64,000 nt of DNA from IMG/VR virus record IMGVR_UViG_3300021963_004241, positions 32,001-96,000 of that record. One strand, 5' to 3'. Source of the DNA: a virus. The position numbers and the translations under genes are program-made. The stretch's first letter is position 1; every line of letters begins with the position of its first letter. Below are positions 35,484-54,098 of this stretch, piece after piece. A model generated the notes under the pieces. That model did no database searches and was not told the DNA's origin. It worked only from the letters and a program-made list of their open reading frames with translations.

Positions 35484-35492
35484 AACATCTCC

Positions 35493-36041: not shown

Positions 36042-36050
36042 TTTATTCTA

Positions 36051-37234: not shown

Positions 37235-37308
37235 TGGTGCTCCCAACTGGTAACGATCCAGTGTTTCTACATTACCAATGTAGTGTAATACCTTTATACT
37301 ATGAGAGC
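37235..37308 (-). tRNA. tRNA-Thr(GGT)
   Basis: Cloverleaf, loop TTGGTAA, CCA; T loop ATCGTTA. Confidence 0.88.
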
Positions 37309-37938
37309 CGAAAATTTTTCTACTAGTTCTCTATGTGGTCGGATTCCAGGATGGCAGTTATCCGGAAAATCTTCAGACCATTTCATTTGATCTAAGATAG
37401 TTTTGTGATCTTTTAAAAGACGGTTTTTAAACTCTAAACTGTCTGCGGATTTTTCTATGAGGTCCAAATGACAGAGTGTATGTACAGTTGGAAATTGTTT
37501 GCCAAAAATAGAACTGCGCCAATCAGGAATCACAAAATCTGCAGATGTTATCTCATAGAAACAATCTAATAATTTTGCCTGTCCACCAATGACTAATGTT
37601 TTAGCCGAGGTGAACTTTTTAAGTTTATCAAATTCCTGATAGATTATTCTAGAATTACTTTCTATAACATCATTTATAAGGAATGATTTATCAGCATCGA
37701 AAAGATTCCTATCTCTTAGAGATTCTGTGTGAAACCAAATGATCCAATCTATTTTAGATATTAAATGATTCTTTGCTGAACTAATCGATGCTAGATTAGA
37801 TCCGCCATTGTTAGCACAGTTGTAAACTGTGTACCCTAGATCTTTTAGTAGAAATTCTGTATGGTATTTTGCATCAACTCCGGGCGGTCCGTAGTAATTT
37901 GGGACCCCCCAACTGTCGCCTAATATTAATATGTTCAT
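37294..37938 (-). CDS. SGNH-hydrolase-like protein
   Basis: ILGDSW and DNCHP motifs. Confidence 0.7.
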   Translation of the reverse strand: MNILILGDSWGVPNYYGPPGVDAKYHTEFLLKDLGYTVYNCANNGGSNLASISSAKNHLISKIDWIIWFHTESLRDRNLFDADKSFLINDVIESNSRIIYQEFDKLKKFTSAKTLVIGGQAKLLDCFYEITSADFVIPDWRSSIFGKQFPTVHTLCHLDLIEKSADSLEFKNRLLKDHKTILDQMKWSEDFPDNCHPGIRPHRELVEKFSALIV

Positions 37939-37949
37939 GTGGATATTTA

Positions 37950-38024
37950 TGGCCTCCCCAGTAGGAATCGAACCTACAACTAAACCTTAGGAGTGTTTTG
38001 TTATATCCATTTAACTATAGGGAG
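37950..38024 (-). tRNA. tRNA-Arg(CCT)
   Basis: Cloverleaf, loop CTCCTAA, CCA. Confidence 0.85.
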
Positions 38025-38028
38025 AATT

Positions 38029-38105
38029 TGGCCTGACTGGAGGGACTCGAACCCCCGACCTACAGCTTAGAAGGCTGTTGCTCTATCCAGTTGAGCTACA
38101 GTCAG
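38029..38105 (-). tRNA. tRNA-Arg(TCT)
   Basis: Cloverleaf, loop CTTCTAA, CCA. Confidence 0.95.
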
Positions 38106-38110
38106 ATATT

Positions 38111-38184
38111 TGGAGCGGGGTAAGAGAATCGAACTCTCCGCATCAGCTTGGAAGGCTGAGGTATTACCACTATACGAACCCCGC
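38111..38184 (-). tRNA. tRNA-Gly(TCC)
   Basis: Cloverleaf, loop CTTCCAA, CCA. Confidence 0.95.
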
Positions 38185-38202
38185 ATAGATATTACTGTAG
38201 CA

Positions 38203-38613
38203 TCATCTTGATTTTTCTGCAAGTTCTTTATAACCTGCCCAGCTAGGATGTATTGAATCTTTTTGTAAACGATCTGTTTTAATGATAGTATCTCCTCGGC
38301 TTCTTGCGATTATGTTAACGATATCATTAACGTTGGGTTTACAGAACTTGTCATTACAAGGCGGCAAGATCCAGAACACTTTATCTGCTTCTACTCTGGC
38401 CCGCATAGCAGACAATTCTTTAAAAGTATGAACACCAGAATGGTCATTAGTTCCGAGACTGATGATAACTGTGCTTGCTGCTATATTTTTTTCAGCAAAC
38501 TTTTTATTCCAGCCCCAACTGTTGATCCCGCCAACACTGTAACTAACGCATTCTTTCCTTACGTTAGCTGTTCCTACTGCAATACTGTCGCCTACGATTA
38601 AACATTCTAACAT
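38203..38613 (-). CDS. GDSL/SGNH hydrolase-like protein
   Basis: IVGDSIA, LGTND, DSIHP. Confidence 0.8.
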   Translation of the reverse strand: MLECLIVGDSIAVGTANVRKECVSYSVGGINSWGWNKKFAEKNIAASTVIISLGTNDHSGVHTFKELSAMRARVEADKVFWILPPCNDKFCKPNVNDIVNIIARSRGDTIIKTDRLQKDSIHPSWAGYKELAEKSR

Positions 38614-38624
38614 ATATTATCCTT

Positions 38625-38700
<76 letters not shown>

Positions 38701-38749
38701 ATTGAGACACACTACTTATCCTATTATACGCCATGTGTCAGGGCGAAAT

Positions 38750-38826
<77 letters not shown>

Positions 38827-38931
38827 AATAGATTTAGGGCACAACAACTAAAAGTATCTACAATACTAATGTCATCTTTGTTATTTAAAATGAGCACAAT
38901 AACGATGCGTCAAGAGTGCTATTCCCTAAAA

Positions 38932-39007
38932 TGGTTGCAGGGGAGGGAATCGAACCCCCGACCTCAAGGTTATGAGCCTTGCCAGATACCGCTTCTAACA
39001 CCCTGCG
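38932..39007 (-). tRNA. initiator-type tRNA-Met(CAT)
   Basis: C1:A72 mismatch, loop CTCATAA, CCA; only two of the usual three G-C anticodon-stem pairs. Confidence 0.88.
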
Positions 39008-39011
39008 TCAA

Positions 39012-39155
39012 ACTTTTGTTAATGGTACAGTTTACTACCCTCTTGCTACCTATTGTTGATCTGTTACACAGACCATTTACTAGTATCATAGGCTTTCCGC
39101 TTTGGGCAAGGTTAGCTGTGTACATTAGCCCACGAGCTGTACCATTAACAAAAGT
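39012..39155 (-). ncRNA. candidate structured RNA closed by a perfect 19-bp stem
   Basis: acttttgttaatggtacag (39012-39030) / ctgtaccattaacaaaagt (39137-39155) with internal hairpins. Confidence 0.55.
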
Positions 39156-39359
39156 GTCTAGCTACAGTTCCCTGTTCCGCCCTAGACTGAGTTGTCTACC
39201 CTGTCGATCAGTATTTAAATTTTTGTCGCCAGTTCTGCTTCTGCCGCCACGGTGTCTCAAGTCGCCGAAAAGGCCTTGGGGTCGATTACCGTTTGCACCC
39301 TGACGTTTTGGTGAAGTCAATTACCCCCTTTAATAACGAGGAAGGGACCCCGGGGTCTG

Positions 39360-39932
39360 TTAGATTAATCCTTCTAGTTGAAGAGTTGCAACAACTTCAT
39401 CGCTGAGAGGGATCTCAGTTTTGATGTTTAACTCAAGAACTTCATCATTCAAAGATTGTTTCTGTTTCTTGAGATCATTTAATTGAGCACGGAAACGATC
39501 AATGTCTCCTACTCGCAACACACTGGTTTCAACAGTGTCACCGTAGCCATAGATACGACTACGTGCTTCGTCTTTCAAATTCTTGATCTTCTCAAGTTTG
39601 CCTTTGACAACTTCGATGTCAGTGACAGTGTCACGACCAACGATTTCAGTCAGTTGTGCAACACGCTTGTCGATGAAAGCTGCTTTAGTCAGCTTAAGAT
39701 CGATTCCGCTTTCGGCATTTGCGGCACACACTAGTCCGCGAATGTTGTAAAGGGCAACCAACAGGTTAGTCCTTCGGAGATCATTTTCCAGCATCTTCTG
39801 ATTGGCTTTTTCAATCTCAGCTTCTGGATTTTGAAATTCGTTGAGAGTTACATTGAACTCTACTTTGATATTTTTAACGGCATCGTTGATGCTGTTTTGA
39901 ATTGCATTTGCTTTACGTAATGTTACTTTCAT
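39360..39932 (-). CDS. coiled-coil protein (190 aa), possibly DIP1984/DUF6847-like
   Basis: GAGG RBS; helical; C-terminal LNDEVLELNIKTEI. Family resemblance from memory only. Confidence 0.7.
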   Translation of the reverse strand: MKVTLRKANAIQNSINDAVKNIKVEFNVTLNEFQNPEAEIEKANQKMLENDLRRTNLLVALYNIRGLVCAANAESGIDLKLTKAAFIDKRVAQLTEIVGRDTVTDIEVVKGKLEKIKNLKDEARSRIYGYGDTVETSVLRVGDIDRFRAQLNDLKKQKQSLNDEVLELNIKTEIPLSDEVVATLQLEGLI

Positions 39933-39949
39933 TTGTGCCTCTCTATGTT

Positions 39950-40220
39950 AACGGGTCGGTAAAGGGTCAAGTAATAGACCGGACAATTGACAAGACCTAT
40001 TGTGCGATGTCGTCGGTCTGGACAATATGCAATAGACAGGCTACAGAGACCTGAATATTTCCGATTAGCAATTGACAGGTATATAAGAATCGGTTCACTC
40101 AAGCACGAACAGTTTTCAAGACTGTTTGCCAGGATTAGTTCGTATTCGCTTATGGGCGAAAACGATTGTCTATTCTCTTCTACCCTCTACTTCACCGGCT
40201 TTGGTATTACTACCTCAGCA
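39950..40220 (-). ncRNA. candidate structured 5' leader/ncRNA with repeated GUCWAUU motifs
   Basis: Promoter TTGACA-N16-TATAAT (40226-40253); ~290-nt ORF-free leader; 5'/3' pairing CGGUGAAG/CUUUACCG. Confidence 0.55.
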
Positions 40221-40280
40221 AAACTATTATAGTTGATTTAAAACTAATGTCAACCAGTTGTCTTAAATTTTTCTTTATTT

Positions 40281-40356
40281 TGGCTCCCCGGGGAAGGATC
40301 GAACTTCCGACCAATTGATTAACAGTCAACTGCTACTACCGCTGAGCTACCGGGGA
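40281..40356 (-). tRNA. tRNA-Asn(GTT)
   Basis: Cloverleaf, loop CTGTTAA, CCA. Confidence 0.93.
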
Positions 40357-40363
40357 ATGTGTT

Positions 40364-40437
40364 TGGTGCCCCTACACAGAATCGAACTGCAAACTACGGA
40401 TTACAAAACCGTCGTTATACCATTTAACTATAAGGGC
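40364..40437 (-). tRNA. tRNA-Thr(TGT)
   Basis: Cloverleaf, loop TTTGTAA, CCA. Confidence 0.88.
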
Positions 40438-40443
40438 GAAACT

Positions 40444-40611
40444 TTACTTACTTCTTGATTCTAATGTCCTGATTCTATTTTGAATCTTGCTCTTGTCTTT
40501 TGGACGAGAGCTCTTTTCTAACATCTCACGTAATTGTACTAGATTAAGTGGTCCTAGTCTAGTCTTTCCTGTTTTTGTTTTCATTGGATCTGCATGATTT
40601 GTTTTTGACAT
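40444..40611 (-). CDS. small basic protein (55 aa, not in ORF track)
   Basis: GAGGA RBS; MSKTNHADPMKTKTGKTRLGPLNL...SRSK*. Confidence 0.65.
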   Translation of the reverse strand: MSKTNHADPMKTKTGKTRLGPLNLVQLREMLEKSSRPKDKSKIQNRIRTLESRSK

Positions 40612-40625
40612 ATTATCCTCTTATT

Positions 40626-40701
40626 TGGTGGAGGTAAACGGGATCGAACCGATGACCTTTAGCTTGCAAAGCTACTGCTCTCCCAGCTGAGCTATACCCC
40701 C
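40626..40701 (-). tRNA. tRNA-Ala(TGC)
   Basis: Cloverleaf, G3:U70, loop TTTGCAA, CCA. Confidence 0.95.
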
Positions 40702-41171
40702 ATTGTGTACTTATAAACGTTTTTTTCTACTGGTAACCATTCCGGATTTTCTAAAGGATCAAAATATTTAGAATCGTATTCTCCAGAATATATAACACAA
40801 TCATTTTTTACTAACAAATCTTTATTACCAGAAAACTTGGATAGATTTAAGTATCCTAGTTCTCTGTTTCTTACACACATATTCCAAGCCATTCCTGCTA
40901 AGAATATTCCATCGACGGTATCGTCATCTAGTAAGAATTTAATCTCATCGATAGTAGTGGCGTAAATTTTTTTACCTTTAAGATTACATACTATAGAAGA
41001 TGCTTTCTTGTTATCGTATGCAGCTATGACTATAGTGTCGATGTCATTTCTCGATTCAACGAATCTTTTGATATTTCTCAACACAGCATAATGCGCTGAC
41101 AACGGAAAAAGTAAAATATTAATCCAATCTAATTCCCAGGGATCTATAATTATTAAAATCCTCTTTTTCAT
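40692..41171 (-). CDS. isochorismatase/cysteine-hydrolase-like protein
   Basis: LIIIDPW and LAGMAWNMCV motifs. Confidence 0.55.
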   Translation of the reverse strand: MKKRILIIIDPWELDWINILLFPLSAHYAVLRNIKRFVESRNDIDTIVIAAYDNKKASSIVCNLKGKKIYATTIDEIKFLLDDDTVDGIFLAGMAWNMCVRNRELGYLNLSKFSGNKDLLVKNDCVIYSGEYDSKYFDPLENPEWLPVEKNVYKYTMGV

Positions 41172-41179
41172 TAGACGAG

Positions 41180-41362
41180 TTATTCTTCTGCTTTGTCTTT
41201 ATTTCGAGATCTCGACGATACTGGTTTAATCAACGCAGCCATCTCGGCTTGTATCATTGCACGTTTCCACTGAGCCTTTTTGTGAGGATCTTGAAACTTA
41301 GACAATGCTAAACTTGTCTTTAGAGGTTTTGACATTCTATAATTAGCGCCTGGTTTTAACAT
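41180..41362 (-). CDS. small basic protein (60 aa)
   Basis: AGGA RBS before MLKPG; the ORF-track start lies inside tRNA-Ser. Confidence 0.65.
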   Translation of the reverse strand: MLKPGANYRMSKPLKTSLALSKFQDPHKKAQWKRAMIQAEMAALIKPVSSRSRNKDKAEE

Positions 41363-41382
41363 ATTTTTCCTTTTTAAAAATT

Positions 41383-41477
41383 TGGCGGAGTGTATTGGAT
41401 TCGAACCAATGATGCAGGTTTTTGCCCACATGCCTTCTTAGCAGGAAGGTGCCTTCGACCAACTCGGCCAACACTCC
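41383..41477 (-). tRNA. tRNA-Ser(GCT)
   Basis: Cloverleaf with long variable arm, loop CTGCTAA, CCA. Confidence 0.93.
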
Positions 41478-41483
41478 AATGTT

Positions 41484-43088
41484 TCACTTGAGATACTTTC
41501 TTTCCCAGGTTTTATAATCTACATCCTGGAATATATTTTCTTTTAACCATTCATAATTATTAGGTAAGTCATCGCTGATTAAATCGTGCTTTACTTCTCT
41601 CGAAGTAAAATAATGACGTCCTAAGTTCAACTGATTTTTAGTTATCGAATCTTTCTTAAATTTAGATAAATCTAATTTCCAAGAAGCCGCTAACTGCAAC
41701 CACATATATTCTGCAAATAATGTCCAATGGTCTTTAGCATTGGTTATGGAATTTCTTCCATCGCTATACTTTTGAAAAATCAAATCTTCGTGACGTTCTT
41801 TGTCGCCGATCGATCGCATGTCGTTCCAAAAGTCAGTGTCAGTTCTCTTACTAAGAGTGTAATGTATCTTTATAAAATCTGTTAGATCGTCAATGGTGTA
41901 TGCCAGTTTCTTATTGTAATTGGACCAATCTAAGTTTCCAGTTTTTTTATATCCGTCTAAACTGTTGATCAATTCGTATATTCCACTGATCAAAATGTAT
42001 AACGCATTTGCTTCTAATGGTTCGTAGAAACCAGAACACAGTCCTACAGTGGCTACGTTACCATTGGCAAATTGTTCTAATCTAGCAGGTTTCCAGGATA
42101 GCACTCTGGGTTCTAATCTTCTATTAGAATTTAGTTTTTTGTACTCGTCTATAGCCTGTTCAACATCTAAGTGACTAGAACTAAAACAAAGTCCACATCC
42201 CATCCTATGATATAAACCGATCTTAAACATCCATCCGTTGGGTTGTGCTATCGATTGTGTGTAATTTACTAACTCTTTTTGTATGTCGTTATATTCTAAT
42301 TGTGCAACTACAGCAGTATCGATGGCATAATCTTTGTAGGGAATCACATTCCAGTTTAGTGCTTTGACTAACAGTCTCGCGAAACCAGAAGCATCAACAA
42401 ACAAATCAGCTGTAACAACTTCTCCATCTTCTAAAACAACGGATGATATTTTATCCTGTTCACATTTTACTTCTATGACTTTTTTAGAAATATGTTTCAC
42501 ACCGTTCGGTAATGCAATAAAATCTCTTACATAGTCTCCGCATTTATCTGCGTTGATGTGTTGACTCCAGCTGTAAAACTGATTAAGTAGATACTTGTCA
42601 TTTAAAAACGGAGAAACGTTTTTCTCCATGTAATGATATGCACTACTCCAATACCTATCAAACTTGTCTATGGAACCATCTAACAACAGTTGAGAAAATA
42701 CATCTGTTGTTTTAACAGTACTCTCTGGATATTTTAAATCGTTGTAGCTGACTAATTCTGAAGTTTCTCTGTACAGCAACTCTGCTGCGGAAGGATACGA
42801 AAATCCAAAATATTCGGATTCATTTTGATCCCCAGTGATCCATCCAGTGAACTTGTTAGCTAATTTATAAACAGCACCAGTTTCATTCATCCAGTGCTTT
42901 GTGTCAATTTCTAGAAAATCAAAAAATCCTTGTACGTGCGGTGTAACACTTTCTCCTACTCCAATCTTTGGAATATCCGGAGACTCTATCAAAGTGATAT
43001 TAAATTGATCATAGACTTTTGAAAGAGCTCCTGCTGTAAACCAGCCAGAAGTGCCGCCACCGACTATAACTATATTTTTTATTTTCAT
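41484..43088 (-). CDS. flavin-dependent tryptophan halogenase family protein
   Basis: IVGGGTSGW, IGVGES, KLANKF, FVDASGF, GWMFKIGL, GFYEPLEA, DTDFW. Confidence 0.88.
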   Translation of the reverse strand: MKIKNIVIVGGGTSGWFTAGALSKVYDQFNITLIESPDIPKIGVGESVTPHVQGFFDFLEIDTKHWMNETGAVYKLANKFTGWITGDQNESEYFGFSYPSAAELLYRETSELVSYNDLKYPESTVKTTDVFSQLLLDGSIDKFDRYWSSAYHYMEKNVSPFLNDKYLLNQFYSWSQHINADKCGDYVRDFIALPNGVKHISKKVIEVKCEQDKISSVVLEDGEVVTADLFVDASGFARLLVKALNWNVIPYKDYAIDTAVVAQLEYNDIQKELVNYTQSIAQPNGWMFKIGLYHRMGCGLCFSSSHLDVEQAIDEYKKLNSNRRLEPRVLSWKPARLEQFANGNVATVGLCSGFYEPLEANALYILISGIYELINSLDGYKKTGNLDWSNYNKKLAYTIDDLTDFIKIHYTLSKRTDTDFWNDMRSIGDKERHEDLIFQKYSDGRNSITNAKDHWTLFAEYMWLQLAASWKLDLSKFKKDSITKNQLNLGRHYFTSREVKHDLISDDLPNNYEWLKENIFQDVDYKTWERKYLK

Positions 43089-43128
43089 ATTTGTATATAT
43101 TATAGAAAAATAGTTTTCTATAATAAAT

Positions 43129-43227
43129 TGGTGCCTCCGGCAGGACTCGAACCTGCACACTCAGGCTTATCTGGCCTGTGCTTTGGCGAGGTATAAGCTC
43201 GCTTCTTTACCATTAAGCTACGGAGGC
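43129..43227 (-). tRNA. tRNA-Ile(TAT) with unusually long variable arm
   Basis: GCGAG-CTTATAC-CTCGC anticodon arm; 29-nt variable region with CAGGC/GCCTG stem; CCA. Confidence 0.85.
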
Positions 43228-43232
43228 ATTTT

Positions 43233-43307
43233 TGGTGCATCGTGAGAGGGTTGAACTCCCGACCTTGGCCTTGTAAGGGCCCTGCTCTACCACTGAGCTA
43301 ACGATGC
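43233..43307 (-). tRNA. tRNA-Val(TAC)
   Basis: Cloverleaf, loop CTTACAA, CCA. Confidence 0.93.
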
Positions 43308-43529
43308 TTATTTCTTTTTCCCTATCTCTTTAGAAACTTTAGTTAGATACTGTTTCATTTCTTTATATGTAGGAAAATGAAGTTTGTCCCCTTGTATCTC
43401 AAGTACCCACATTATTTCGTCTGCGTCATGAGGGCTTTCAACTTGTTCTACTACGAAGTCGACATTAGGCAGTTTCTTTTCAAAGTCCGCCATGTCTTTG
43501 GTAAATTTTGCGAAATTAATCTCTTCCAT
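43308..43529 (-). CDS. hypothetical protein (73 aa)
   Basis: AAGGA RBS before MEEINF. Confidence 0.65.
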   Translation of the reverse strand: MEEINFAKFTKDMADFEKKLPNVDFVVEQVESPHDADEIMWVLEIQGDKLHFPTYKEMKQYLTKVSKEIGKKK

Positions 43530-43538
43530 GATTATCCT

Positions 43539-43622
43539 TGGTGCCCCAGGAGAGACTCGAACTCTCACGCCTTGCGACATTGGCTTCTAAGACCAACGTG
43601 TCTACCATTCCACCACCGGGGC
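43539..43622 (-). tRNA. tRNA-Leu(TAG)
   Basis: Class II cloverleaf, loop CTTAGAA, CCA. Confidence 0.93.
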
Positions 43623-43641
43623 ATAAATCTATTATAGCAAA

Positions 43642-43827
43642 TTACTTAGCTGTGTCAAGTCTCTTTTCTAATTTTTTTAGAGTATCCTTGCGCATTAAGA
43701 ATCGTCTTTCCTGACTAGGCCTATGAACGACGAGATATTCAACACCATCTATTACCTGCACATCTCGCGTGTTCTCACAAACAAATTTTTCGTGATTAAG
43801 AATGTTTTCAAAAGTTACAGGCTTCAT
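43642..43827 (-). CDS. hypothetical protein (61 aa)
   Basis: AAGGAG RBS. Confidence 0.7.
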   Translation of the reverse strand: MKPVTFENILNHEKFVCENTRDVQVIDGVEYLVVHRPSQERRFLMRKDTLKKLEKRLDTAK

Positions 43828-43838
43828 AATTATCTCCT

Positions 43839-43912
43839 TGGGGTGCCTTGGGGAATCGAACCCTCGCCTGCTGATTCACAGTCAGCTTTGCTACCACTAC
43901 ACTAAAGACACC
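43839..43912 (-). tRNA. tRNA-His(GTG)
   Basis: G-1:C73, loop CTGTGAA, CCA. Confidence 0.93.
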
Positions 43913-43918
43913 ATTGTG

Positions 43919-43992
43919 TGGCGGCGGTACCAGGGCTCGAACCTAGAACGACTGAGTCAAAGTCAGTTGTGTTACCATTACACCATACCGCT
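43919..43992 (-). tRNA. tRNA-Gln(TTG)
   Basis: Cloverleaf, loop CTTTGAC, CCA. Confidence 0.92.
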
Positions 43993-43997
43993 ATATT

Positions 43998-44073
43998 TGG
44001 TGCTGCCTCGTGGGATCGAACCACGTTCCTCGGTTCTTCAGACCGGTGCTATGACCACATCAGCTAAAGCAGC
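43998..44073 (-). tRNA. tRNA-Phe(GAA)
   Basis: Cloverleaf, loop CTGAAGA, CCA. Confidence 0.9.
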
Positions 44074-44078
44074 AAAAT

Positions 44079-44154
44079 TGGTGGAGGCACAGGGACTCGA
44101 ACCCTGAACCTACCGGTTAAAAGCCGGTTGCTCTAGCCATTGAGCTATACCTCC
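44079..44154 (-). tRNA. tRNA-Lys(TTT)
   Basis: Cloverleaf, loop CTTTTAA, CCA. Confidence 0.94.
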
Positions 44155-44246
44155 GTATAGTCCGTATTAGATTGATTTACTGTGCCAACCCGGACCACAC
44201 GGAGTACCGGGCGACACTAAGGTTTACCTACCTTCATGCCATTCTC

Positions 44247-44315
44247 CTATTTTAAATTTTTGTCTATCCAAATTAATCCTACTACAACCAAAATAATAAC
44301 TGCGATCGCCCCATT
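44247..44315 (-). CDS. 22-aa single-transmembrane peptide (not in ORF track)
   Basis: AAGGAG RBS; MGAIAVIILVVVGLIWIDKNLK*. Confidence 0.55.
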   Translation of the reverse strand, partial: NGAIAVIILVVVGLIWIDKNLK

Positions 44316-44331
44316 TTGTTTTCTCCTTTAA

Positions 44332-44413
44332 TGGTACCCCTGCCCGGACTCGAACCGGGAGAAACTAACACTCCTTTTGAGAGAGCTGCCTTTACCAATT
44401 TGGCCACAGGGGC
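44332..44413 (-). tRNA. tRNA-Leu(CAA)
   Basis: Cloverleaf, loop CTCAAAA, CCA. Confidence 0.88.
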
Positions 44414-44416
44414 ATT

Positions 44417-44501
44417 TGGTGCGAGCGGAGGGTCACGATCCCTCAATCCCGAAGGCGGCAGATTTTAAGTCTGCTGTGTATACCAATTCCACCACGCTCG
44501 C
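44417..44501 (-). tRNA. tRNA-Leu(TAA)
   Basis: Class II cloverleaf, loop CTTAAAA; T loop ATCGTGA. Confidence 0.9.
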
Positions 44502-44508
44502 ATATTTC

Positions 44509-44584
44509 TGGCACCCCTGGAAGGAATCGAACCTCCTACTCCGATGTTCGTAGCATCGTACTCTGTCCAATGAGTTACAGGGGT
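44509..44584 (-). tRNA. tRNA-Arg(ACG)
   Basis: Cloverleaf, loop CTACGAA, CCA. Confidence 0.92.
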
Positions 44585-44586
44585 AT

Positions 44587-44661
44587 TGGCCGGCCTGGAG
44601 AGATTCGAACTCCCGACAGCTGGTTTCGAAGACCAGAACTCTTCCACTGAGCTACAGGCCG
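44587..44661 (-). tRNA. tRNA-Arg(TCG)
   Basis: Cloverleaf, loop CTTCGAA, CCA. Confidence 0.9.
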
Positions 44662-44664
44662 AAT

Positions 44665-44743
44665 TGGTCTGGATGGTAGGATTCGAACCTACAACCTCGA
44701 TCTTCCAAAGATCGCCGTCTACGCAGATTGACATTACACCCAG
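44665..44743 (-). tRNA. tRNA-Pro(TGG), second divergent copy
   Basis: CGATC-TTTGGAA-GATCG arm, CCA. Confidence 0.85.
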
Positions 44744-44752
44744 GTTAAAGGA

Positions 44753-44976
44753 TTGTAGCCTAGCGTCCTCAGGTTCATCGCTAGTGTTTACGCATACAGA
44801 GCCGGACTTCCTTATGCGGAGGTTTTCCAGGACATGTTACTTGGGCTACTAAGCCAGGCGCTTCCACTTCAGCTACCGCCCGGAATGGACGGTGGGGAGT
44901 CGAACCCCCTCCTGCTCTACATTGTATTAAGTTTCGAACCTTTTTACAATGTGCTTTTTACTTGCTAACGCTACAA
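44753..44976 (-). ncRNA. RNA with circularly permuted tRNA-like domain (YrlA/Y-RNA-like)
   Basis: T arm, then closed acceptor hairpin, then D arm at 44851-44918; ends complementary (TTGTAGC/GCTACAA). Confidence 0.6.
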
Positions 44977-44979
44977 ACT

Positions 44980-45054
44980 TGGTGCCGCAGGGTGGGAACG
45001 ATCCACCGACCTACGCCTTATCAAGACGTTGCTCTACCACTGAGCTACTGAGGC
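44980..45054 (-). tRNA. tRNA-Ile(GAT)
   Basis: Cloverleaf, loop TTGATAA; T loop ATCGTTC. Confidence 0.9.
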
Positions 45055-45064
45055 AAATTTTATT

Positions 45065-45139
45065 TGGTGGTAACGATAGGACTCGAACCTATACCTTGCA
45101 GCGTATGAAGCTGTTGCACGACCATTATGCTACGTTACC
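45065..45139 (-). tRNA. tRNA-CAT (elongator Met or lysidine Ile2)
   Basis: Cloverleaf, loop TTCATAC, paired G1-C72, CCA. Confidence 0.88.
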
Positions 45140-45141
45140 GT

Positions 45142-45216
45142 TGGCGGTCCCAAGGGGTAACGATCCCCTTCTTTCAGCGTGACAGGCTGATGTGCGTCCA
45201 TGAACACTTTGAGACC
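45142..45216 (-). tRNA. tRNA-Asp(GTC)
   Basis: Cloverleaf, loop CTGTCAC; T loop ATCGTTA. Confidence 0.9.
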
Positions 45217-45222
45217 TAATGT

Positions 45223-45312
45223 TGGCGGAAGCGGTGAGATTCGAACTCACGGACCATTTCTGATCGTCTGTTTTCAAGACAGGTGCAATAAACCGGACTC
45301 TGCCACACTTCC
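45223..45312 (-). tRNA. tRNA-Ser(TGA)
   Basis: Class II cloverleaf, loop CTTGAAA, CCA. Confidence 0.93.
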
Positions 45313-45774
45313 TTCGATTTTAAATTTTGTTAGAATGTCTACACTCCAACGATAAGCATAACTAGTGCCATGCTCATTACTAAAGAATAATTTTTTACTG
45401 TGAGGTAGATCCATGTCTAGGATATAGACATGGTCTGGATCAAACTTAGGATCATTGAATCCTATGTAAACTTTTGTATCGTGTTTCTTAGCTATGTTTT
45501 TATAACTGTTATAGAATCGTTCATCAAAGCCAAAGTATCTTTGACCATACATTTCGTAACAGTTTCTTTTCTTAGCATCTATAAAACAGATCTTTTCTGT
45601 CTCAGTATTGTAAAGAACATAGTCGGGAAATTGATCTCCGTCCTCGTCTCTATGTACGTCTCGGGTATCATTGACTTCCCAGTTTGTATTAGCGAAGTAT
45701 TGGTCCATCCATTTCTCCATCTTGGATTCCCATACTTGGCCTACAGCTAATGATTTTCTAAATTTAATTCCCAT
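45274..45774 (-). CDS. PD-(D/E)xK nuclease-like protein
   Basis: WE...FPDYVLY...FIDAKKR; own promoter TTGACA-N17-TACACT. Confidence 0.65.
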   Translation of the reverse strand: MGIKFRKSLAVGQVWESKMEKWMDQYFANTNWEVNDTRDVHRDEDGDQFPDYVLYNTETEKICFIDAKKRNCYEMYGQRYFGFDERFYNSYKNIAKKHDTKVYIGFNDPKFDPDHVYILDMDLPHSKKLFFSNEHGTSYAYRWSVDILTKFKIEGSVAESGLLHLS

Positions 45775-45808
45775 ACTACAGTGTATAGTATAAAAATTAG
45801 TTTGTCAA

Positions 45809-45886
45809 TGGAGCACCGGGTAGGATTTGAACCTACGGTTTTATGGATTTGCAATCCACTGCATTGGGCCTCTCTGCCACCGGTGC
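45809..45886 (-). tRNA. tRNA-Cys(GCA)
   Basis: Cloverleaf, loop TTGCAAA, U73, CCA. Confidence 0.92.
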
Positions 45887-45891
45887 ATAAC

Positions 45892-45967
45892 TGGTACACG
45901 GTACGGGAATCGAACCCGTCTTTCCGCCTTGAAAGGGCAGCGTCCTCGACCGATAGACGAACCGTGC
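45892..45967 (-). tRNA. tRNA-Glu(TTC)
   Basis: Cloverleaf, loop CTTTCAA, CCA. Confidence 0.93.
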
Positions 45968-46064
45968 ATAAAAACTGCTAAGGGACACACAGGGCTGTTG
46001 TTTAAGAGTGAGCGGCGACTTTACGTAAAAGTCTCCTCCCGCAACTCTCCCATTAAGACTTTAC

Positions 46065-46139
46065 TGGCGTACCCCCAGGGATTCGAACCCCGACTAGCAG
46101 TTTTGGAGACTGTCGTGCTGCCGTTGACACTAGGGATAC
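46065..46139 (-). tRNA. tRNA-Trp(CCA)
   Basis: Cloverleaf, loop CTCCAAA, CCA. Confidence 0.92.
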
Positions 46140-46145
46140 ATTCTT

Positions 46146-46230
46146 TGGTGGATGCGGCTGGAGTCGAACCAGCAGTGCCAGAGGCGGCGGATTTACAGTC
46201 CACTGGGGTTACCAATTTTCCTACACATCC
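46146..46230 (-). tRNA. tRNA-Tyr(GTA)
   Basis: Class II cloverleaf, loop CTGTAAA, CCA. Confidence 0.93.
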
Positions 46231-46319
46231 AAAAACTATTCTGAAATACACTGACGACAATATGCTATGCATCCTATTTCTATGCGTCTAGGCTGTGGCC
46301 AATATGTTTTAGAATAGTG

Positions 46320-47205
46320 TTAAAGCTGAGATTACACTTTAACCAGTAACACCTCGAGCATTATACTGCACCTTGCGAGCACAGCTTCTCTCGACATCCA
46401 CATAAGCCCTTGCGGTACCTATGTCTGCTACCAGCATCGCCGTTTTTAAAGACAGGCAGTAGTCTTGTCGTCATACGCTATTCTGTATCATCTATCCCGT
46501 TGACCTTGCGAGCCATTCAAGTGCGCTAACACTTTACGAAACTTCCAATACAAACTAGTATCACCTTGCGAGCTTTACTAGGCTTGATTCACTTGCGTGT
46601 CAAGCATTAGATGCTTTTCACGTATGACCGAGGCAGTCTTTGCATTTTTGTGTTGATAGTTGGAATCGAACCAACTGCCGTCTGTTTAACATACAGATGC
46701 TCTACCGAATGAGCTATATCGAACCTACCGTGATGAGCTACCTCTGTTGCTCAATAATCTTTTGGACTACTGAATACAACTCACCACATACCTTTTGTCT
46801 TGCGGACTACTCAGTGATGTTTCACGATCGGTGTCCTGCATCAAAACAGTCCACTAACCATTAACATTGCACACGAGCTCTTGACTGCAACATCTCGAAC
46901 CAATGCACTACCCTTTCTCATACCTGTTCGCAAGTTGGTTTTGTTAGGAAGTCAGCACCACCTGTTACTTTTCATACGCCCAGGTTCCTTACGGCCTGTC
47001 GACGCACATTCTTTCCCTAACACTTGCTTCACAGTTACATCCACCGGTCTTATCAGTGAACGCTACCTCGCGGTAGTGAGCAGGCTTGTTTACGTGAACC
47101 ATTGCTGGCGCTAGTATGTAGGCATTCTAGCTTTGGCTGTGTCACCACAGTTATTCTTCGTAACGCTGGGCGAACCATACGCTACAGGACAATAAACTGC
47201 CCTAA
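46320..47205 (-). ncRNA. large structured ncRNA, GOLLD-like
   Basis: ~890 nt with no credible minus-strand ORF, at least 8 C-GNRA-G tetraloop hairpins, promoter TTGACA-N16-TATAAT at 47212-47239, adjacent to tRNA array, internal tRNA. Confidence 0.72.
46651..46724 (-). tRNA. tRNA-Asn(GTT)-like element embedded in the large ncRNA (no CCA)
   Basis: D arm GCTC/GAGC, TCTGT-ATGTTAA-ACAGA, T arm GTTGG-TTCGATT-CCAAC, bulged acceptor. Confidence 0.7.
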
Positions 47206-47487
47206 GTCTCTATTATATACAAGTTATTTTACTTGTCAATACTTTTTGGTTAAACACTCTTCCCTATGGTTTTAGACAGCGTCAGGGGCTGAATGAAGAG
47301 TGTGTATTAAAGTGCTCTATGTACGCTATGCGCCGCCTTGTTCAGAGGTCGATAGAACACTTTAATACGCTACCATTTTACGCATCTAGGTTGTCGCCCT
47401 AGACTTACCATCCGGTAGGCCGCCCACATTAGTAGCAAGATTTTTATAGTGCCCTGCAGGGTCGCGTTCCCTATCACACTTCGCGTT

Positions 47488-47646
47488 CTACGAAAGGTCT
47501 TCCTTACGTTCCCGCACTTTGTCTAACGAGTAAAAAAATGTGTTTCTTTTCACTTTAGATTCAATTAATTTCTTAAATTGTTCTTCAGTTAAAACAAATC
47601 CTTCACTGTGCTCAACTTTGTAATCGTCATCTATCTCAAATTCCAT
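47488..47646 (-). CDS. small hypothetical protein (52 aa, not in ORF track), first gene after attenuator
   Basis: AAGGA RBS; MEFEIDDDYKVEHSEGFVLTEEQFKKL...DLS*. Confidence 0.6.
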   Translation of the reverse strand: MEFEIDDDYKVEHSEGFVLTEEQFKKLIESKVKRNTFFYSLDKVRERKEDLS

Positions 47647-47660
47647 CTGTTCCTTTCGGC

Positions 47661-47696
47661 AAACAAAAACCCCAGGGTTTTTAATCCTGGGGTCCT
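47661..47696 (-). terminator. intrinsic terminator of putative attenuator
   Basis: ACCCCAGG-attaaaaac-CCTGGGGT-TTTTGTTT. Confidence 0.85.
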
Positions 47697-47746
47697 TTTG
47701 AAGTTTGTGTAGTTTTGTTTACGCTACACGATCCTCCGAGGACCCC
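47689..47746 (-). promoter_or_regulatory. antiterminator hairpin
   Basis: GGGGTCCT (47739-47746, in leader ORF) complementary to AGGACCCC (47689-47696, terminator 5' arm); inner GGAG/CTTC and GTGTAG/CTACAC helices. Confidence 0.75.
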
Positions 47747-47862
47747 GATTCTGGTGTACGATCATTAGATAGACTAATCTCACATACAGACCAATATGAG
47801 GGCATAAAGCCTCCCAACTGGGCTATCTGTTTCGCTTGTCTATGTAACGATAATTGTTTCAT
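47719..47862 (-). CDS. attenuator leader peptide containing all 20 amino acids (47 aa, not in ORF track)
   Basis: AAGGA RBS; MKQLSLHRQAKQIAQLGGFMPSYWSVCEISLSNDRTPESGSSEDRVA*. Confidence 0.75.
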   Translation of the reverse strand: MKQLSLHRQAKQIAQLGGFMPSYWSVCEISLSNDRTPESGSSEDRVA

Positions 47863-47901
47863 TTGCTTTTCTTTCCTTGTGCTGTTTCCAGCGATGTTCT
47901 T

Positions 47902-47992
47902 ACTATAACAACTGTTAAGAAGCTTGTCAACCTATTTTGGCATTCTTCCTAACCATTGCAAAAATTATAATGTAACTTTATTTAGTTGTCAA
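47902..47992 (-). promoter_or_regulatory. tandem sigma70-type promoters
   Basis: TTGACA-N17-TATAGT (47902-47930) and TTGACA-N17-TATAAT (47964-47992). Confidence 0.8.
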
Positions 47993-48074
47993 TCTAAAAA
48001 GTACACTATAATGTGGTATTTTTACAACATTCTAAATATTGTACACAGTTATTTATGTTCTGTAAATACACTGG

Positions 48075-49049
48075 ATGATGAATTACGAAAAAATTTCTTG
48101 GCAGTCTATAAAATCGTTTGGTCAACAAACAATGTTAGATCGTCCACTGTTCAACATAAGTTGGATACTGGGCAGGTTCTGCAATTACAAATGTAGCTAC
48201 TGTTGGCCCTACGCCAGAAGCGATCAACAAGACTACCAATCACTTGATGTGTATAAGAATACAATTGATCAAATTAAAAGTCAAGCCCGTTCGAACGGAT
48301 TCACAGAGTTCCATTGGAGCTTCAGCGGCGGCGAGCCAACTGCTTATAAACATCTAAATGACTTAGTCAAGTATTTGGACGAGAAGGAAAGTTCCTATCA
48401 AAGTGTGCATATGACTACTAATCTTAGTCCGGGAAGCAAATGGTGGAACACCTGGTGTAGTAATACTTGTTTATTACAAAGAAGAAGCATCACAGCCAGC
48501 TTTCACGAGGAGTTTGCCAAAGAGCAAGAGTTTGGAGACAAGTGTTTGCAACTAATGTATGAGCGTGTGCATGTAACTATCAATCAAGTAATGGTGCCTG
48601 ATCGATTCTATGAGCTGTATGAACGCTGCGATCGATTCCACAGGAAAGGTATCAACGTCACATTGAAACCCCAAAGTGATCCTACTGCTAGCCGTGTAGT
48701 AGAAGGGTACACTGACGAAATGATAAAGATTATGCAAACAGGATTTCCCCAAAGATCTGAAGATGAAAATGTATATCAAATCCGTTTAAACAACGGAACA
48801 ACAGATTATTACTTTGATCAAGCAGAAAGATTTAATGCTTTTGGATTTAATAAATTTAAAAATTGGACCTGCAACAGCGGGTATCAAAGTCTAGTGATCA
48901 GAGGAAATGAAGTAAAACGTGCTTACAGTTGCAAAGAAGAACCCTTAGGAACTTTGGAGGATTTCCAAATTTTTAAAGAACCTAAGGTCTGTGTAACAGA
49001 AACTTGTGTAAGTTCAGCAGACAGTAAAATACCAAAAAGAATACAATGA
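48075..49049 (+). CDS. radical SAM protein
   Basis: CNYKCSYC, FSGGEP, C-terminal Cys cluster. Confidence 0.9.
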   Translation: MMNYEKISWQSIKSFGQQTMLDRPLFNISWILGRFCNYKCSYCWPYARSDQQDYQSLDVYKNTIDQIKSQARSNGFTEFHWSFSGGEPTAYKHLNDLVKYLDEKESSYQSVHMTTNLSPGSKWWNTWCSNTCLLQRRSITASFHEEFAKEQEFGDKCLQLMYERVHVTINQVMVPDRFYELYERCDRFHRKGINVTLKPQSDPTASRVVEGYTDEMIKIMQTGFPQRSEDENVYQIRLNNGTTDYYFDQAERFNAFGFNKFKNWTCNSGYQSLVIRGNEVKRAYSCKEEPLGTLEDFQIFKEPKVCVTETCVSSADSKIPKRIQ

Positions 49050-49723
49050 TTTGGAATCAATACTTTAAATTAGATGAGCAGGGCAATCGCTGTATGGCCC
49101 AGCAGACCTATGAACCGTTAGTTAGCGAGGATGGCAAAACTTTTTGTAAAAACTACGATCAGGATAACGAATACCAAAAATTAACAGGATACCCGAGACC
49201 TTTGTATACTAGAGAAGTAGTTGATTGGTTTTTTAATAACGAAATCAAATGGTTAGAATTTTTTAAAAATAAACCATATGCTCCAGAAGTTGTTGACATA
49301 GATTTAAAAAATAAAAAGATCTACATCAAATGGTATAACGAAACCTGTAATCAAATTATGTATGGTGGGAAGTTTTGGCCTAAAGATATTTGGAAACAAC
49401 AGATAAAAGACATAATTAAAGATCAATACCGAGATGGTGTATACAAACTCACGATGTATCCGCACTGCCATTACATCGATGATCAAAATAACATGAGGGC
49501 GATTGATTGGTACGGATGTGTTCCTGTATCAGACCCTTTTGTAGAAGCTGTTTACATGGACGGAATCATACACGAGACAGCTAAATTTAGATTAGACGAA
49601 ACAGGAGATCAGATCGACCATAGATACAATCTTGAAATCATGTTCAAGAATAGTTTAAGATCTCACGTCCTCTGGGGAGAAGAAAACATGAGTTTCATTT
49701 ATAAGGATCTCTTCAATGCCTAA
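49046..49723 (+). CDS. kinase-like-fold protein (paralogue of 53376-54071)
   Basis: WFFNNEIKWL..APEVVDID...YKLTMYPHC..RAIDWY; fold is inference. Confidence 0.5.
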   Translation: MIWNQYFKLDEQGNRCMAQQTYEPLVSEDGKTFCKNYDQDNEYQKLTGYPRPLYTREVVDWFFNNEIKWLEFFKNKPYAPEVVDIDLKNKKIYIKWYNETCNQIMYGGKFWPKDIWKQQIKDIIKDQYRDGVYKLTMYPHCHYIDDQNNMRAIDWYGCVPVSDPFVEAVYMDGIIHETAKFRLDETGDQIDHRYNLEIMFKNSLRSHVLWGEENMSFIYKDLFNA

Positions 49724-50291
49724 GTATGTAGGTTCCACTGAAAATTTAATAGACTGGGGAAGCATTGTAAAAATATGCAAGTCCAGGAATGATGGTGACT
49801 TTAATTCTGTAACCACAGTAGTTGATAGATCTGAATCTAGCTGGCAGGAGGATCAGGATCTGTTAGGGTCTTATAGAGAAGTTATAAAAATTTGGACCGA
49901 TGCTGGATATGCCTTAGAAAAAATACAGTGGTACGATTACTATCCAGGAACTCATTTTGATATAGAGGTACAAAATAAATTTGCAGATCTAGTCAATGCA
50001 GATCCAAGAAGGGTATTTGTTAGCGAACTATGGCCAGGCCGATGTGTTCCATACCACTGGGATGTAGAAGACAAAGAGAAAGAATGGTTAGCCGAAGGCG
50101 ATCTAGTTCGTTACGTTTGCTTTATGGAGAAGCCTCAATTTGGTCATGTGTTGATAATTGAAAATGATATTTTTTATAATACCAAACAACACGATGTATG
50201 GGAATGGGACAACTATAGGAATTGGCATGCTGGAACTAATTGTGGTTCAGAGCCCTATTACCTATTTCATTTTTTAGGAAAACCTAGATGA
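49716..50291 (+). CDS. 2OG-Fe(II) oxygenase (Asp/Asn beta-hydroxylase-like)
   Basis: PYHWD (HxD) ... WHAGTN. Confidence 0.7.
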   Translation: MPKYVGSTENLIDWGSIVKICKSRNDGDFNSVTTVVDRSESSWQEDQDLLGSYREVIKIWTDAGYALEKIQWYDYYPGTHFDIEVQNKFADLVNADPRRVFVSELWPGRCVPYHWDVEDKEKEWLAEGDLVRYVCFMEKPQFGHVLIIENDIFYNTKQHDVWEWDNYRNWHAGTNCGSEPYYLFHFLGKPR

Positions 50292-50833
50292 TAGAATACA
50301 TAGGAAACTGTTCTCAGATAATAGATTGGGATGAAATAATAAAACAGTGTGCATCGACTGCTCCGGAATACATAGGACCTAGTCATAAGAAAAGTGATGA
50401 CATTCCTGGTCTTAAAGAAGTCTCGGACTTATGGGACCATGCCGGATACAAAAATCTAAATGAAGGCGGCACCGTTGGATGGAGTATGTATCTTCCAGGT
50501 AAGCAATTTGATTCTTCAGTGATTGATAAGTTTTGTGGATTTTACAATATTGAAACTTATCGCACTGCCTGGATCAGTAGGATAGATGTTGGACACTTTG
50601 CTCCTATACATTGGGATGTAAACGATCAGGAAGAACAATTATCTAAGTTACCTCCTATGGTCCGATATCATTGTCATATATCAAAACCAAAGTTCGGACA
50701 CGTTTTTATAGTAGAAGATCAATGCTTCTATAACAAAGCGCAAGGCGATACATTTAAATGGGCAGATAGGAGATACTGGCACGCCGGATCTAACTGCGGA
50801 CTAGAACCTAAATATATTTTGAATTTGTGGTGA
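50288..50833 (+). CDS. 2OG-Fe(II) oxygenase (paralogue of previous)
   Basis: PIHWD ... WHAGSN. Confidence 0.7.
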   Translation: MIEYIGNCSQIIDWDEIIKQCASTAPEYIGPSHKKSDDIPGLKEVSDLWDHAGYKNLNEGGTVGWSMYLPGKQFDSSVIDKFCGFYNIETYRTAWISRIDVGHFAPIHWDVNDQEEQLSKLPPMVRYHCHISKPKFGHVFIVEDQCFYNKAQGDTFKWADRRYWHAGSNCGLEPKYILNLW

Positions 50834-50836
50834 TGT

Positions 50837-51292
50837 ATGTTTAAAGTTTGTATTACAGGTACAACTAGAGGACTTGGTAAATTTTTAAAAGAATATTTTA
50901 CCAAGAAGGGATATTTTGTTATTGGATTAAATCGAGGTGATGATATCGTTACTTCGGCAGTAGGTTGTAATTTGTTTATTAATAATGCTTACGGCGGAAA
51001 ATTGCAAATAGATCTTTTTAATGAATTACACTCTAGAATTAAAAATATAGTAGTAATGGGTAGCGTAGCCGCAGACTATCCCGATCCTAGTATGCCTGAA
51101 TATAGTCAGAATAAAAAAGAATTAAAACAACGTGTATTAGAAGTAGCGAATACAAGTGACAGAAATATATTGTTATTAGAACTAACAGGTGCAAGTTATA
51201 ATGATCCAGAAACAATAGGTAAAGTTATTGATTTTTGGCTTGCTAATCCAACAGTAACTTGTGTATCGTTTATTCACGGAGAAAAGAATTGA
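50837..51292 (+). CDS. short-chain dehydrogenase-like protein
   Basis: ITGTTRGLG, FINNA, YSQNK (YxxxK). Confidence 0.75.
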   Translation: MFKVCITGTTRGLGKFLKEYFTKKGYFVIGLNRGDDIVTSAVGCNLFINNAYGGKLQIDLFNELHSRIKNIVVMGSVAADYPDPSMPEYSQNKKELKQRVLEVANTSDRNILLLELTGASYNDPETIGKVIDFWLANPTVTCVSFIHGEKN

Positions 51293-51885
51293 GTAAGAGG
51301 ATAGTTATAACTGGTCACACCAGCGGCATTGGCAAATCTATATATGATGCTCTCAAGCAAGATAGCTGTAGAGAAATTGTAGGGTTGTCTCGCAGTAATG
51401 GATACGACATTGATAAAGATTTTGATCGAGTGGTCGAAGAAGCGTCTGGTTGTGAGTTGTTTATTAACAATGCCTACAGGGACGGACAGCAGTTAAAGTT
51501 GCTACAAGCACTAAAGAATAAAGTTGATTCTATGGTAGTTATGGGCAGTGTCAGTAGATTTTATCCAGAAATTATACCTACGCAATATGTGAAAGACAAG
51601 CAAGAGTTAGCAGAAGAATGTAGATTGATAAGTTTAGATCCAAACGGAATACCTATACTGCATTTAGATCTTAGTTTTATCGAAGGCACAACAGTTGACA
51701 ATGATCCTGCTGCGTTTGTTAGTGATTATACCACTAGCCACGACGATATAATAGAGTCGATTGTGTTCTGGACTAGACATCCCGTTGTAAGACAAATGGA
51801 ATTTAGATGGAAGCTGACTCCTTATCTAAGGGAGCAGCTATACAGGATTAATCCAAATTTAGATCCATCTAGGATAACGATTTAA
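51289..51885 (+). CDS. short-chain dehydrogenase-like protein
   Basis: ITGHTSGIG, FINNA, YVKDK; TTG start overlapping the upstream stop. Confidence 0.75.
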   Translation: MSKRIVITGHTSGIGKSIYDALKQDSCREIVGLSRSNGYDIDKDFDRVVEEASGCELFINNAYRDGQQLKLLQALKNKVDSMVVMGSVSRFYPEIIPTQYVKDKQELAEECRLISLDPNGIPILHLDLSFIEGTTVDNDPAAFVSDYTTSHDDIIESIVFWTRHPVVRQMEFRWKLTPYLREQLYRINPNLDPSRITI

Positions 51886-52413
51886 ATTTTCATAGAACTT
51901 ATCAACTTTTATTTTCCAAACAGTTTGATCAGTTCCTCTATAAAATACATCTTTAACTTTTTCAACGATTCCTAGTTTTTCAAGAGTAGGGAAGTAAGTT
52001 CTGTGTACAAATCTTTGGCTAGCAACAATACTTTCATTAGAGGTTGCATAGATATTATCTCCAGCCCACTCAATGCAAGCAGGTAGGAAGAATTGATCGG
52101 TGATGTTTTGATGTTGACCTATTGCCACTCGAGCAGTCATCATTCCACCGTTTGATCTAGCACCTGTTAGTACACAGCATCTCGCCAACACTCTGTAACT
52201 ACCCGTACCCATTACATCATCAAAAGTGTGAGAGACTACACTACCCACTGCTTGATCATTTTCGTAGAGTATCCAAGCTTTCCAATCTCTCTCGTTTTTA
52301 AAACAGTCTATCATTCTTTGTTGATTACTGTTATTGTAAAAACCTTTTTGGTCAGCTTTATTATAAAAGTCAGTTAGATCTAGATCAGAGGTCCATTCTA
52401 ATAACTTGTACAT
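51859..52413 (-). CDS. hypothetical protein, possibly GNAT-fold
   Basis: Start MYKLLEW; WILY...VG...YRVLAR pattern; fold uncertain. Confidence 0.5.
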   Translation of the reverse strand: MYKLLEWTSDLDLTDFYNKADQKGFYNNSNQQRMIDCFKNERDWKAWILYENDQAVGSVVSHTFDDVMGTGSYRVLARCCVLTGARSNGGMMTARVAIGQHQNITDQFFLPACIEWAGDNIYATSNESIVASQRFVHRTYFPTLEKLGIVEKVKDVFYRGTDQTVWKIKVDKFYENLNRYPRWI

Positions 52414-53374: not shown

Positions 53375-53375
53375 T

Positions 53376-54071: not shown

Positions 54072-54098
54072 GCAAATACTTATCAGCTAAGTATTGCT

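Follow-up and report, generated by a model that had tools for sequence, protein, structure and literature searches.

A GOLLD-family RNA with a tRNA-shaped linker module at the head of a viral tRNA array

The stretch of DNA analyzed here (the window) comprises 64,000 nucleotides, positions 32,001 to 96,000 of the IMG/VR virus record IMGVR_UViG_3300021963_004241. Its minus strand carries a gene-free stretch of 0.9 kb, which encodes an RNA that clearly belongs to GOLLD, a known family of large RNAs that form cages, together with a long array of tRNA genes that begins shortly downstream of it and a group of five enzyme genes that adjoins the other side of the array (Table 1). The source record is a contig of 111 kb with a CheckV completeness estimate of 31% and, because it is this long at so low an estimated completeness, it probably represents a giant phage. 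One protein of the record has distant homologues in the PA5oct-like Pseudomonas and Stenotrophomonas jumbo phages.

Table 1. Features of the GOLLD locus and its surroundings. Positions are those of the window, and A2 is the alignment of relatives described in the text.
Feature	Position	Strand	Basis
Rnl1-type RNA ligase	33444-34343	(-)	
AAA_33 (P-loop) kinase	34518-34979	(-)	
HD phosphohydrolase	34980-35483	(-)	
Metallophosphoesterase	35493-36041	(-)	
Dual-specificity phosphatase	36242-36805	(-)	
29 tRNA genes, all with encoded CCA	37235..46230	(-), same strand as GOLLD	ARAGORN, Rfam
Spacer from GOLLD to the first array tRNA (tRNA-Tyr)	46231..46317	(-)	Promoter and terminator scan, fold
Whole GOLLD RNA, ~888 nt	about 46318..47205	(-)	Rfam match, full-length homology, RNAalifold
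3′ domain (conserved), containing GGUCAUACG/CGUAUGAC as long-range helix and also five C-GCAA-G hairpins	46323..46649	(-)	Rfam ~130-416; covariation, A2 746-1098
tRNA-like module with GUU anticodon, without CCA, with a weak A/U-rich acceptor, in the variable linker (J13/15)	46650..46723	(-)	ARAGORN, Rfam tRNA
Conserved hairpin opening the Rfam model (positions 1-62), directly 5′ of the linker	46728..46787	(-)	cmscan alignment; covarying helix, A2 575-632
5′ domain (~420 nt), outside the Rfam model, with many GNRA-capped hairpins including CUACC-GCGA-GGUAG	46788..47205	(-)	Subfamily conservation, covariation
Sigma-70-type promoter TTGACA-N16-TATAAT	47212..47239	(-)	12/12 consensus match
Structured non-coding element, ~200 nt	47255-47470	(-)	MFE z-score -2.6
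47-codon ORF	47719-47862	(-)	
Consensus promoters preceding the 47-codon ORF	47992-47964 and 47930-47902		

GOLLD RNA was reportedly first described by Weinberg et al. in 2009. In the window, the Rfam GOLLD model (RF02032) matched positions 46323-46787 of the minus strand from end to end (model positions 1-416 of 416) with 225.6 bits and an E-value of 1.3e-62, compared to a curated gathering cut-off of 150 bits, and a search of the whole virus record recovered the identical match. All 15 relatives that were tested also passed this cut-off, with full-length matches of 157-230 bits. The model spans only the first hairpin, the variable linker and the conserved 3′ domain of the RNA. The Rfam search returned no match to ROOL (RF03087) in the window, and at a threshold of E = 1 on positions 46200-48100 it gave, besides GOLLD and tRNA, only noise (YrlA and mir-2076, each at 21 bits). 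A sequence-only reading of this DNA had pointed to an ORF-poor stretch behind its own promoter and had offered two identities for it, a GOLLD family member or a new RNA of similar size. The first of these is correct and the second is not needed; two of the checks that this reading had proposed, an Infernal search with the GOLLD model and a search for covariation among homologues, gave positive results. The paucity of ORFs was also borne out, since no ORF on either strand is longer than 77 aa, and this, together with the RNA-type covariation, rules out a protein-coding interpretation. Its general statement that GOLLD RNAs adjoin tRNAs and sometimes hold one inside agrees with published work (PMC12286853, PMC6582537, PMC12990946).

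Relatives were gathered by two pattern scans of viral contigs, each of which was filtered with nhmmer. The first scan, for a motif at the 3′ end, gave 118 loci, just 11 of which matched the window GOLLD by nhmmer, and the second used the 14-mer AAAGACTGCCTCGG, whose matches are mostly due to chance, so that the nhmmer filtering was needed. About 40 viral-metagenome loci proved to be homologous over the full ~890 nt, corresponding to 36 unique sequences, and some of the contigs that carry them are 100-364 kb long. The loci L107 and L108 looked like GOLLDs with an internal tRNA, that of L107 having a CCA, but both scored below the Rfam GOLLD cut-off and were dropped. A nucleotide search of isolated phages gave short matches only and no near relative; the GOLLD core had a short match in the Xanthomonas phages BUDD and X1 (~70% identity), and the tRNA module had one in Serratia phages (~80% identity). 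As a separate observation, the viral contig of L108, which came from the 3′-motif scan, carries a tmRNA gene (L108:10991-11258, minus strand; RF00023, 96.6 bits) that is unrelated to GOLLD.

The consensus fold was predicted with RNAalifold on an alignment of 31 sequences (A2). It contained 206 pairs, 162 of which are supported by one or more compensatory double changes, with a covariation term of -48 kcal/mol. Since the helices of the 5′ domain, the first hairpin, the long-range 3′ helix and the terminal stem all covary, the whole of the ~888 nt can be considered one structured RNA, whose 3′ end is carried by the terminal stem to about position 46318. The covarying helices of the 5′ domain lie at A2 columns 137-151, 157-180, 219-262, 273-408, 293-361, 432-473, 475-541 and 543-572, and the covarying hairpins of the 3′ domain lie at columns 777-800, 801-829, 830-903, 968-1072 and 1076-1098, while the long-range helix (columns 753-760/908-915) is built from CG, UA, AU and GC pair types. 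The hairpin loops that the sequence-only reading had listed on the minus strand were all recovered at their positions: the six C-GCAA-G loops correspond to plus-strand CTTGCG at 46372, 46409, 46505, 46565, 46592 and 46799, the C-GUAA-G loop to CTTACG at 46988, and the CUACC-GCGA-GGUAG hairpin (~47062-47075) to CTCGCG at 47067. Each of the six GCAA motifs caps a hairpin, both in the Rfam alignment and in the RNAalifold consensus, and their number far exceeds expectation, with six copies of CTTGCG in 920 nt against 0.2 expected by shuffling and a shuffle maximum of three. The published J13/15-L20 kissing loop was sought by eye in alignment A2 and was not assigned.

The ~420 nt between the promoter and the first model hairpin correspond to the less conserved 5′ region that is a known trait of the GOLLD family (PMC12286853). 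A sequence HMM built from this domain detects only the subfamily of giant-phage contigs, and it found no GOLLD outside the subfamily in our sample, which included four loci that resemble the published env-38 and have a tRNA-Met directly upstream (L002, L046, L099 and L106).

The promoter noted earlier is present upstream of the RNA, and transcription would start near positions 47203-47207. A TTGACA/-10 pair was found at the same place in 7 of the 23 relatives whose upstream sequence extends to 70 nt or more (L060, L154, L036, L061, L095, L161 and L025), while in several other relatives tRNAs lie directly upstream of GOLLD, where the promoter would be. GOLLD would be transcribed on the minus strand from its consensus sigma-70 promoter, and transcription starting at more distant upstream promoters probably reads through into it as well. 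It would be the first RNA of the phage's 29-tRNA operon. The first tRNA of the array, tRNA-Tyr, begins 88 nt downstream of GOLLD, and a scan of the spacer between them found neither a promoter nor a canonical terminator, which makes read-through from GOLLD into the tRNA array likely. This spacer is predicted to fold into a long imperfect hairpin followed by UUUUU (z = -1.8). The 3′ side of GOLLD would be released by the processing of the next tRNA. We infer the ends of the GOLLD RNA, its abundance and its integrity at the tRNA module.

Within the array, the tRNA callers disagreed at certain positions: the matches at 43132-43227 (59 bits) and 44669-44742 (36.5 bits) on the minus strand were found by Rfam only, and the tRNA-Asp that ARAGORN placed at 45142-45216 was missing from the Rfam list. 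Without exception, GOLLD in the relatives shares its strand with the neighboring tRNAs, and it is often found in the middle of an array, flanked by tRNAs on either side; in relatives with sufficient sequence downstream, the next tRNA in most cases follows 65-150 nt after GOLLD. Just upstream of the GOLLD promoter lies a conserved, structured non-coding element, 21 of whose 39 consensus pairs show compensatory changes among eight sequences, and which has no ORF of more than 35 aa and no Rfam match. In relatives this element heads the tRNA array, at a distance of 1.8-3 kb from GOLLD. The 47-codon ORF that lies further upstream, behind two consensus promoters of its own, uses all 20 amino acids, for which ~2% would be expected from its composition. 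In six relatives (L216, L155, L235, L208, L126 and L176) the structured element is likewise preceded by a homologous ORF, 45-53 aa long and using 19-20 residue types, and in these the pair of leader ORF and structured element heads the tRNA array. The five genes that adjoin the array's other side (33444-36805) look like an RNA end-healing and sealing set.

The module in the GOLLD linker lies between the first model hairpin and an A-rich junction. ARAGORN called it as tRNA-Asn(GTT), and the Rfam tRNA model (RF00005) matched positions 46651-46723 with 56.1 bits, confirming the cloverleaf with a GUU anticodon, a bulged acceptor and no CCA that had been read from the sequence. The cloverleaf is canonical, with a GG in the D loop, a TTCGATT T loop and an anticodon loop of 7 nt containing U33 and A37. 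In the acceptor, five of the seven pairs form in register, or seven if one C is bulged, and only one is a G-C pair. The array tRNAs served as controls: all 29 encode a CCA and have at least three G-C pairs in the acceptor, and in 26 of them the acceptor is fully paired (7/7). The module is identical to the phage's true tRNA-Asn (40281-40356) at 47 of 74 positions, which is the background level and no closer than its similarity to other tRNAs. The presence of a tRNA or pseudo-tRNA at the same place in the GOLLD linker has already been described (PMC6582537, PMC12286853, PMC12990946).

A module was found at the same place in every relative inspected. ARAGORN called it in 30 of the 36 unique sequences, without a CCA in any of the 30; five of the six sequences that it missed carry a degenerate tRNA-like module, and the sixth is L025. 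The D, anticodon and T arms covary in the relatives (RNAalifold, A2), and so do the inner four acceptor pairs, which are never lost, while the outer three are often broken and form the least conserved part of the module. The anticodons seen were GTT, TTT, CTT, ATT, GAT, TAT, TCT, GCT, TGG, CTA and TTG, and on a tree of 31 sequences built from the rest of the RNA the anticodon changed at least 13 times, with sister sequences differing from each other (GTT/ATT and TTT/GTT) and a GAT nested inside a GTT clade. Some copies have anticodon loops of 6 or 8 nt, or a T loop that is broken or degenerate. Among the 29 seven-nucleotide loops, U33 and a purine at position 37 were present in all, and U36 in 26. 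Near-identical modules were seen on different branches of the tree, for example those of the window and L201 and those of L221 and L194, which suggests that modules also move between backbones by recombination. Since the arms covary while the anticodon and the outer acceptor vary, selection acts on the tRNA shape, but not on the decoding identity of the module or on its acceptor end. On the basis of these sequence comparisons, we favor the view that the module is a tethered tRNA mimic and not a working tRNA gene.

It is thus highly probable that the locus as a whole encodes a GOLLD RNA of ~888 nt with its own promoter, standing at the head of a 29-tRNA operon and carrying in its linker a tRNA-shaped, non-working module. 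The family is a known one, as is the kind of insertion, and nothing about the locus is categorically new. Our addition is a modest one, consisting of the comparison across the subfamily, in which the module is CCA-less and its anticodon drifts, and of the operon context. The RNA resembles the GOLLD family in its full-length model match, its conserved 3′ domain with the long-range helix, its variable 5′ domain of ~420 nt and its size of ~0.9 kb, and also in its phage origin, its position in a tRNA island and its variable linker after the first model hairpin. It differs from env-38 GOLLD, in which the linker is a disordered loop of 42 nt, whereas a full tRNA-shaped module is present here. The tRNA-array GOLLD of Mycobacterium/Mycolicibacterium shares both the tRNA-like element in the linker and an array of ~30 tRNAs (PMC6582537, PMC12990946). 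However, its element is of the Phe type, whereas the module anticodons here are those of Asn, Lys, Arg and others, and the present subfamily comes from uncultured giant phages with distant protein links to Pseudomonas/Stenotrophomonas jumbo phages. ROOL (RF03087) is likewise a large phage or prophage RNA found near tRNA islands, and it forms an RNA-only cage with an internal disordered linker, but its sequence and fold are unrelated to those of GOLLD. A tRNA-shaped domain that lies within a larger non-coding RNA and does not serve decoding is also found in YrlA and the bacterial Y RNAs (RF02553); in contrast to YrlA, the module here is not permuted, and the YrlA model reached only 21 bits, compared to its cut-off of 69 bits. 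No surroundings of the Ro type were noticed either.

Cryo-EM of GOLLD has revealed a closed RNA-only cage, formed by 14 copies in env-38 and by 12 in Streptococcus agalactiae, with the linker directed inward (PMC12286853, PMC12990946). The account of the cage and its inward-facing linker by Kretsch et al. 2025 (PMC12286853) also describes the 5′ and 3′ halves of the RNA as separate structural domains. The present RNA would conform to this published two-domain form, with a subfamily-specific 5′ domain, a universally conserved 3′ domain and the variable linker between them, and, judging by homology, 10-14 copies of it most likely assemble by themselves into a closed RNA-only cage, their linkers pointing inward. 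Such a particle would therefore enclose 10-14 tRNA mimics. Its cap or its copy number could differ here, because the sequence HMM of the 5′ domain misses the GOLLDs outside the subfamily in our sample.

During infection, the cage may present tRNA look-alikes, held to it covalently, which engage a tRNA-binding factor, and the GOLLD RNA may be part of the programme by which the phage supplies and repairs tRNAs. If the RNA is as we describe it, acting as bait for a tRNA-binding factor is the most likely of its roles, although we put this forward tentatively and only from the anatomy of the RNA and its gene neighborhood. A ranking of the roles is speculative; ours places bait, including decoys for anticodon nucleases, ahead of the storage of a releasable tRNA, and storage ahead of a processing site that splits the RNA.

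One form that bait could take is that of a decoy or sponge: the tethered mimics would occupy anticodon nucleases of the host, or a different enzyme that reads the anticodon loop, and so shield the genuine tRNAs of phage and host. Several anticodon nucleases target Lys, Asn and Arg tRNAs, and in phage T4, enzymes of the ligase, kinase and phosphatase types repair tRNA that has been cut by a nuclease. Consistent with such a role, the modules vary at anticodon positions 34 and 35 and keep U33, U36 and purine 37, most of their anticodons read ANN codons, being of the Asn, Lys, Arg, Ile and Ser types, and genes for an Rnl1-type ligase, a kinase and a phosphatase adjoin the array. Nonetheless, the case is circumstantial: the bias towards U36 could have come from a GUU ancestor via single substitutions, modules also recombine between backbones, and the interior of the cage may be out of reach of a nuclease. 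We consider the decoy role unlikely, though worth keeping in view, and say the same of the broader proposal that the cage is a carrier of 10-14 mimics serving as a decoy or trap for anticodon-loop readers, alongside the RNA-repair genes and a translation-sensing leader. If true, the decoy-carrier proposal would provide the first function for GOLLD.

Another possibility, which has been published for the tRNA-Phe in the Mycolicibacterium GOLLD (PMC12990946), is that the module is a genuine tRNA-Asn held in "inhibited storage", where it would be shielded in the assembly and later freed on demand by RNase P, RNase Z and CCA addition to serve in translation. The canonical cloverleaf (56 bits), with its GG in the D loop, its TTCGATT T loop, U33 and A37, is in keeping with this idea, and excision of the module followed by CCA addition is possible, the D and T loops and the 7-nt anticodon loop being canonical. 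On the other hand, the module lacks the CCA that 29 of 29 array tRNAs encode, its acceptor is weak or bulged with a single G-C pair, and the array already contains a proper tRNA-Asn(GTT), which makes the module redundant. Furthermore, the anticodons of sister sequences differ (GTT, TTT, CTT, ATT and GAT), some relatives have defective loops, and the internal element in Mycobacterium is a pseudo-tRNA for which no expression of its own was detectable (PMC6582537). Storage of a functional tRNA-Asn is, in our judgement, quite improbable.

A comparably small chance is given to the module being mainly a processing signal, at which RNase P and/or RNase Z would split GOLLD into 5′ and 3′ pieces that stay assembled. 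The conservation of the tRNA elbow elements and the separation of the 5′ and 3′ halves into distinct domains in the solved cage (PMC12286853) would accommodate such a split, but the cleavage sites lie in the outer three acceptor pairs, where the module is least conserved, and there is no CCA to aid bacterial RNase P. Finally, the notion that there is no functional RNA at the locus, but only a chance model match in an intergenic spacer or a decayed tRNA region, has virtually no probability left, since it is refuted by the match to the GOLLD model (E = 1e-62) and by ~40 full-length relatives with compensatory changes in 162 pairs, with the conservation of the promoter also arguing against it.

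The tethered tRNA mimic that we favor thus belongs to an RNA family that is among the largest bacterial and phage RNAs without a known function, and whose cage structure was solved only recently. The subfamily described here is well populated, and throughout it the linker is a tRNA look-alike that lacks CCA and whose anticodon is unstable. The position of GOLLD between a conserved leader and a full set of tRNAs adjoining RNA-repair genes provides a concrete handle on function, and the alignment of the subfamily is a good basis for modelling the 5′ cap.

Other genes of the neighborhood may also be mentioned. In the middle of the tRNA array, positions 41484-43160 of the minus strand encode a 558-aa protein of the flavin-dependent tryptophan halogenase family (phrog_2928, E = 3e-89). 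On the plus strand, divergent from the GOLLD/tRNA unit, the region 48075-59149 contains a row of radical-SAM proteins, encoded at 48075-49049, 54914-56062, 56658-58067 and 58067-59149.
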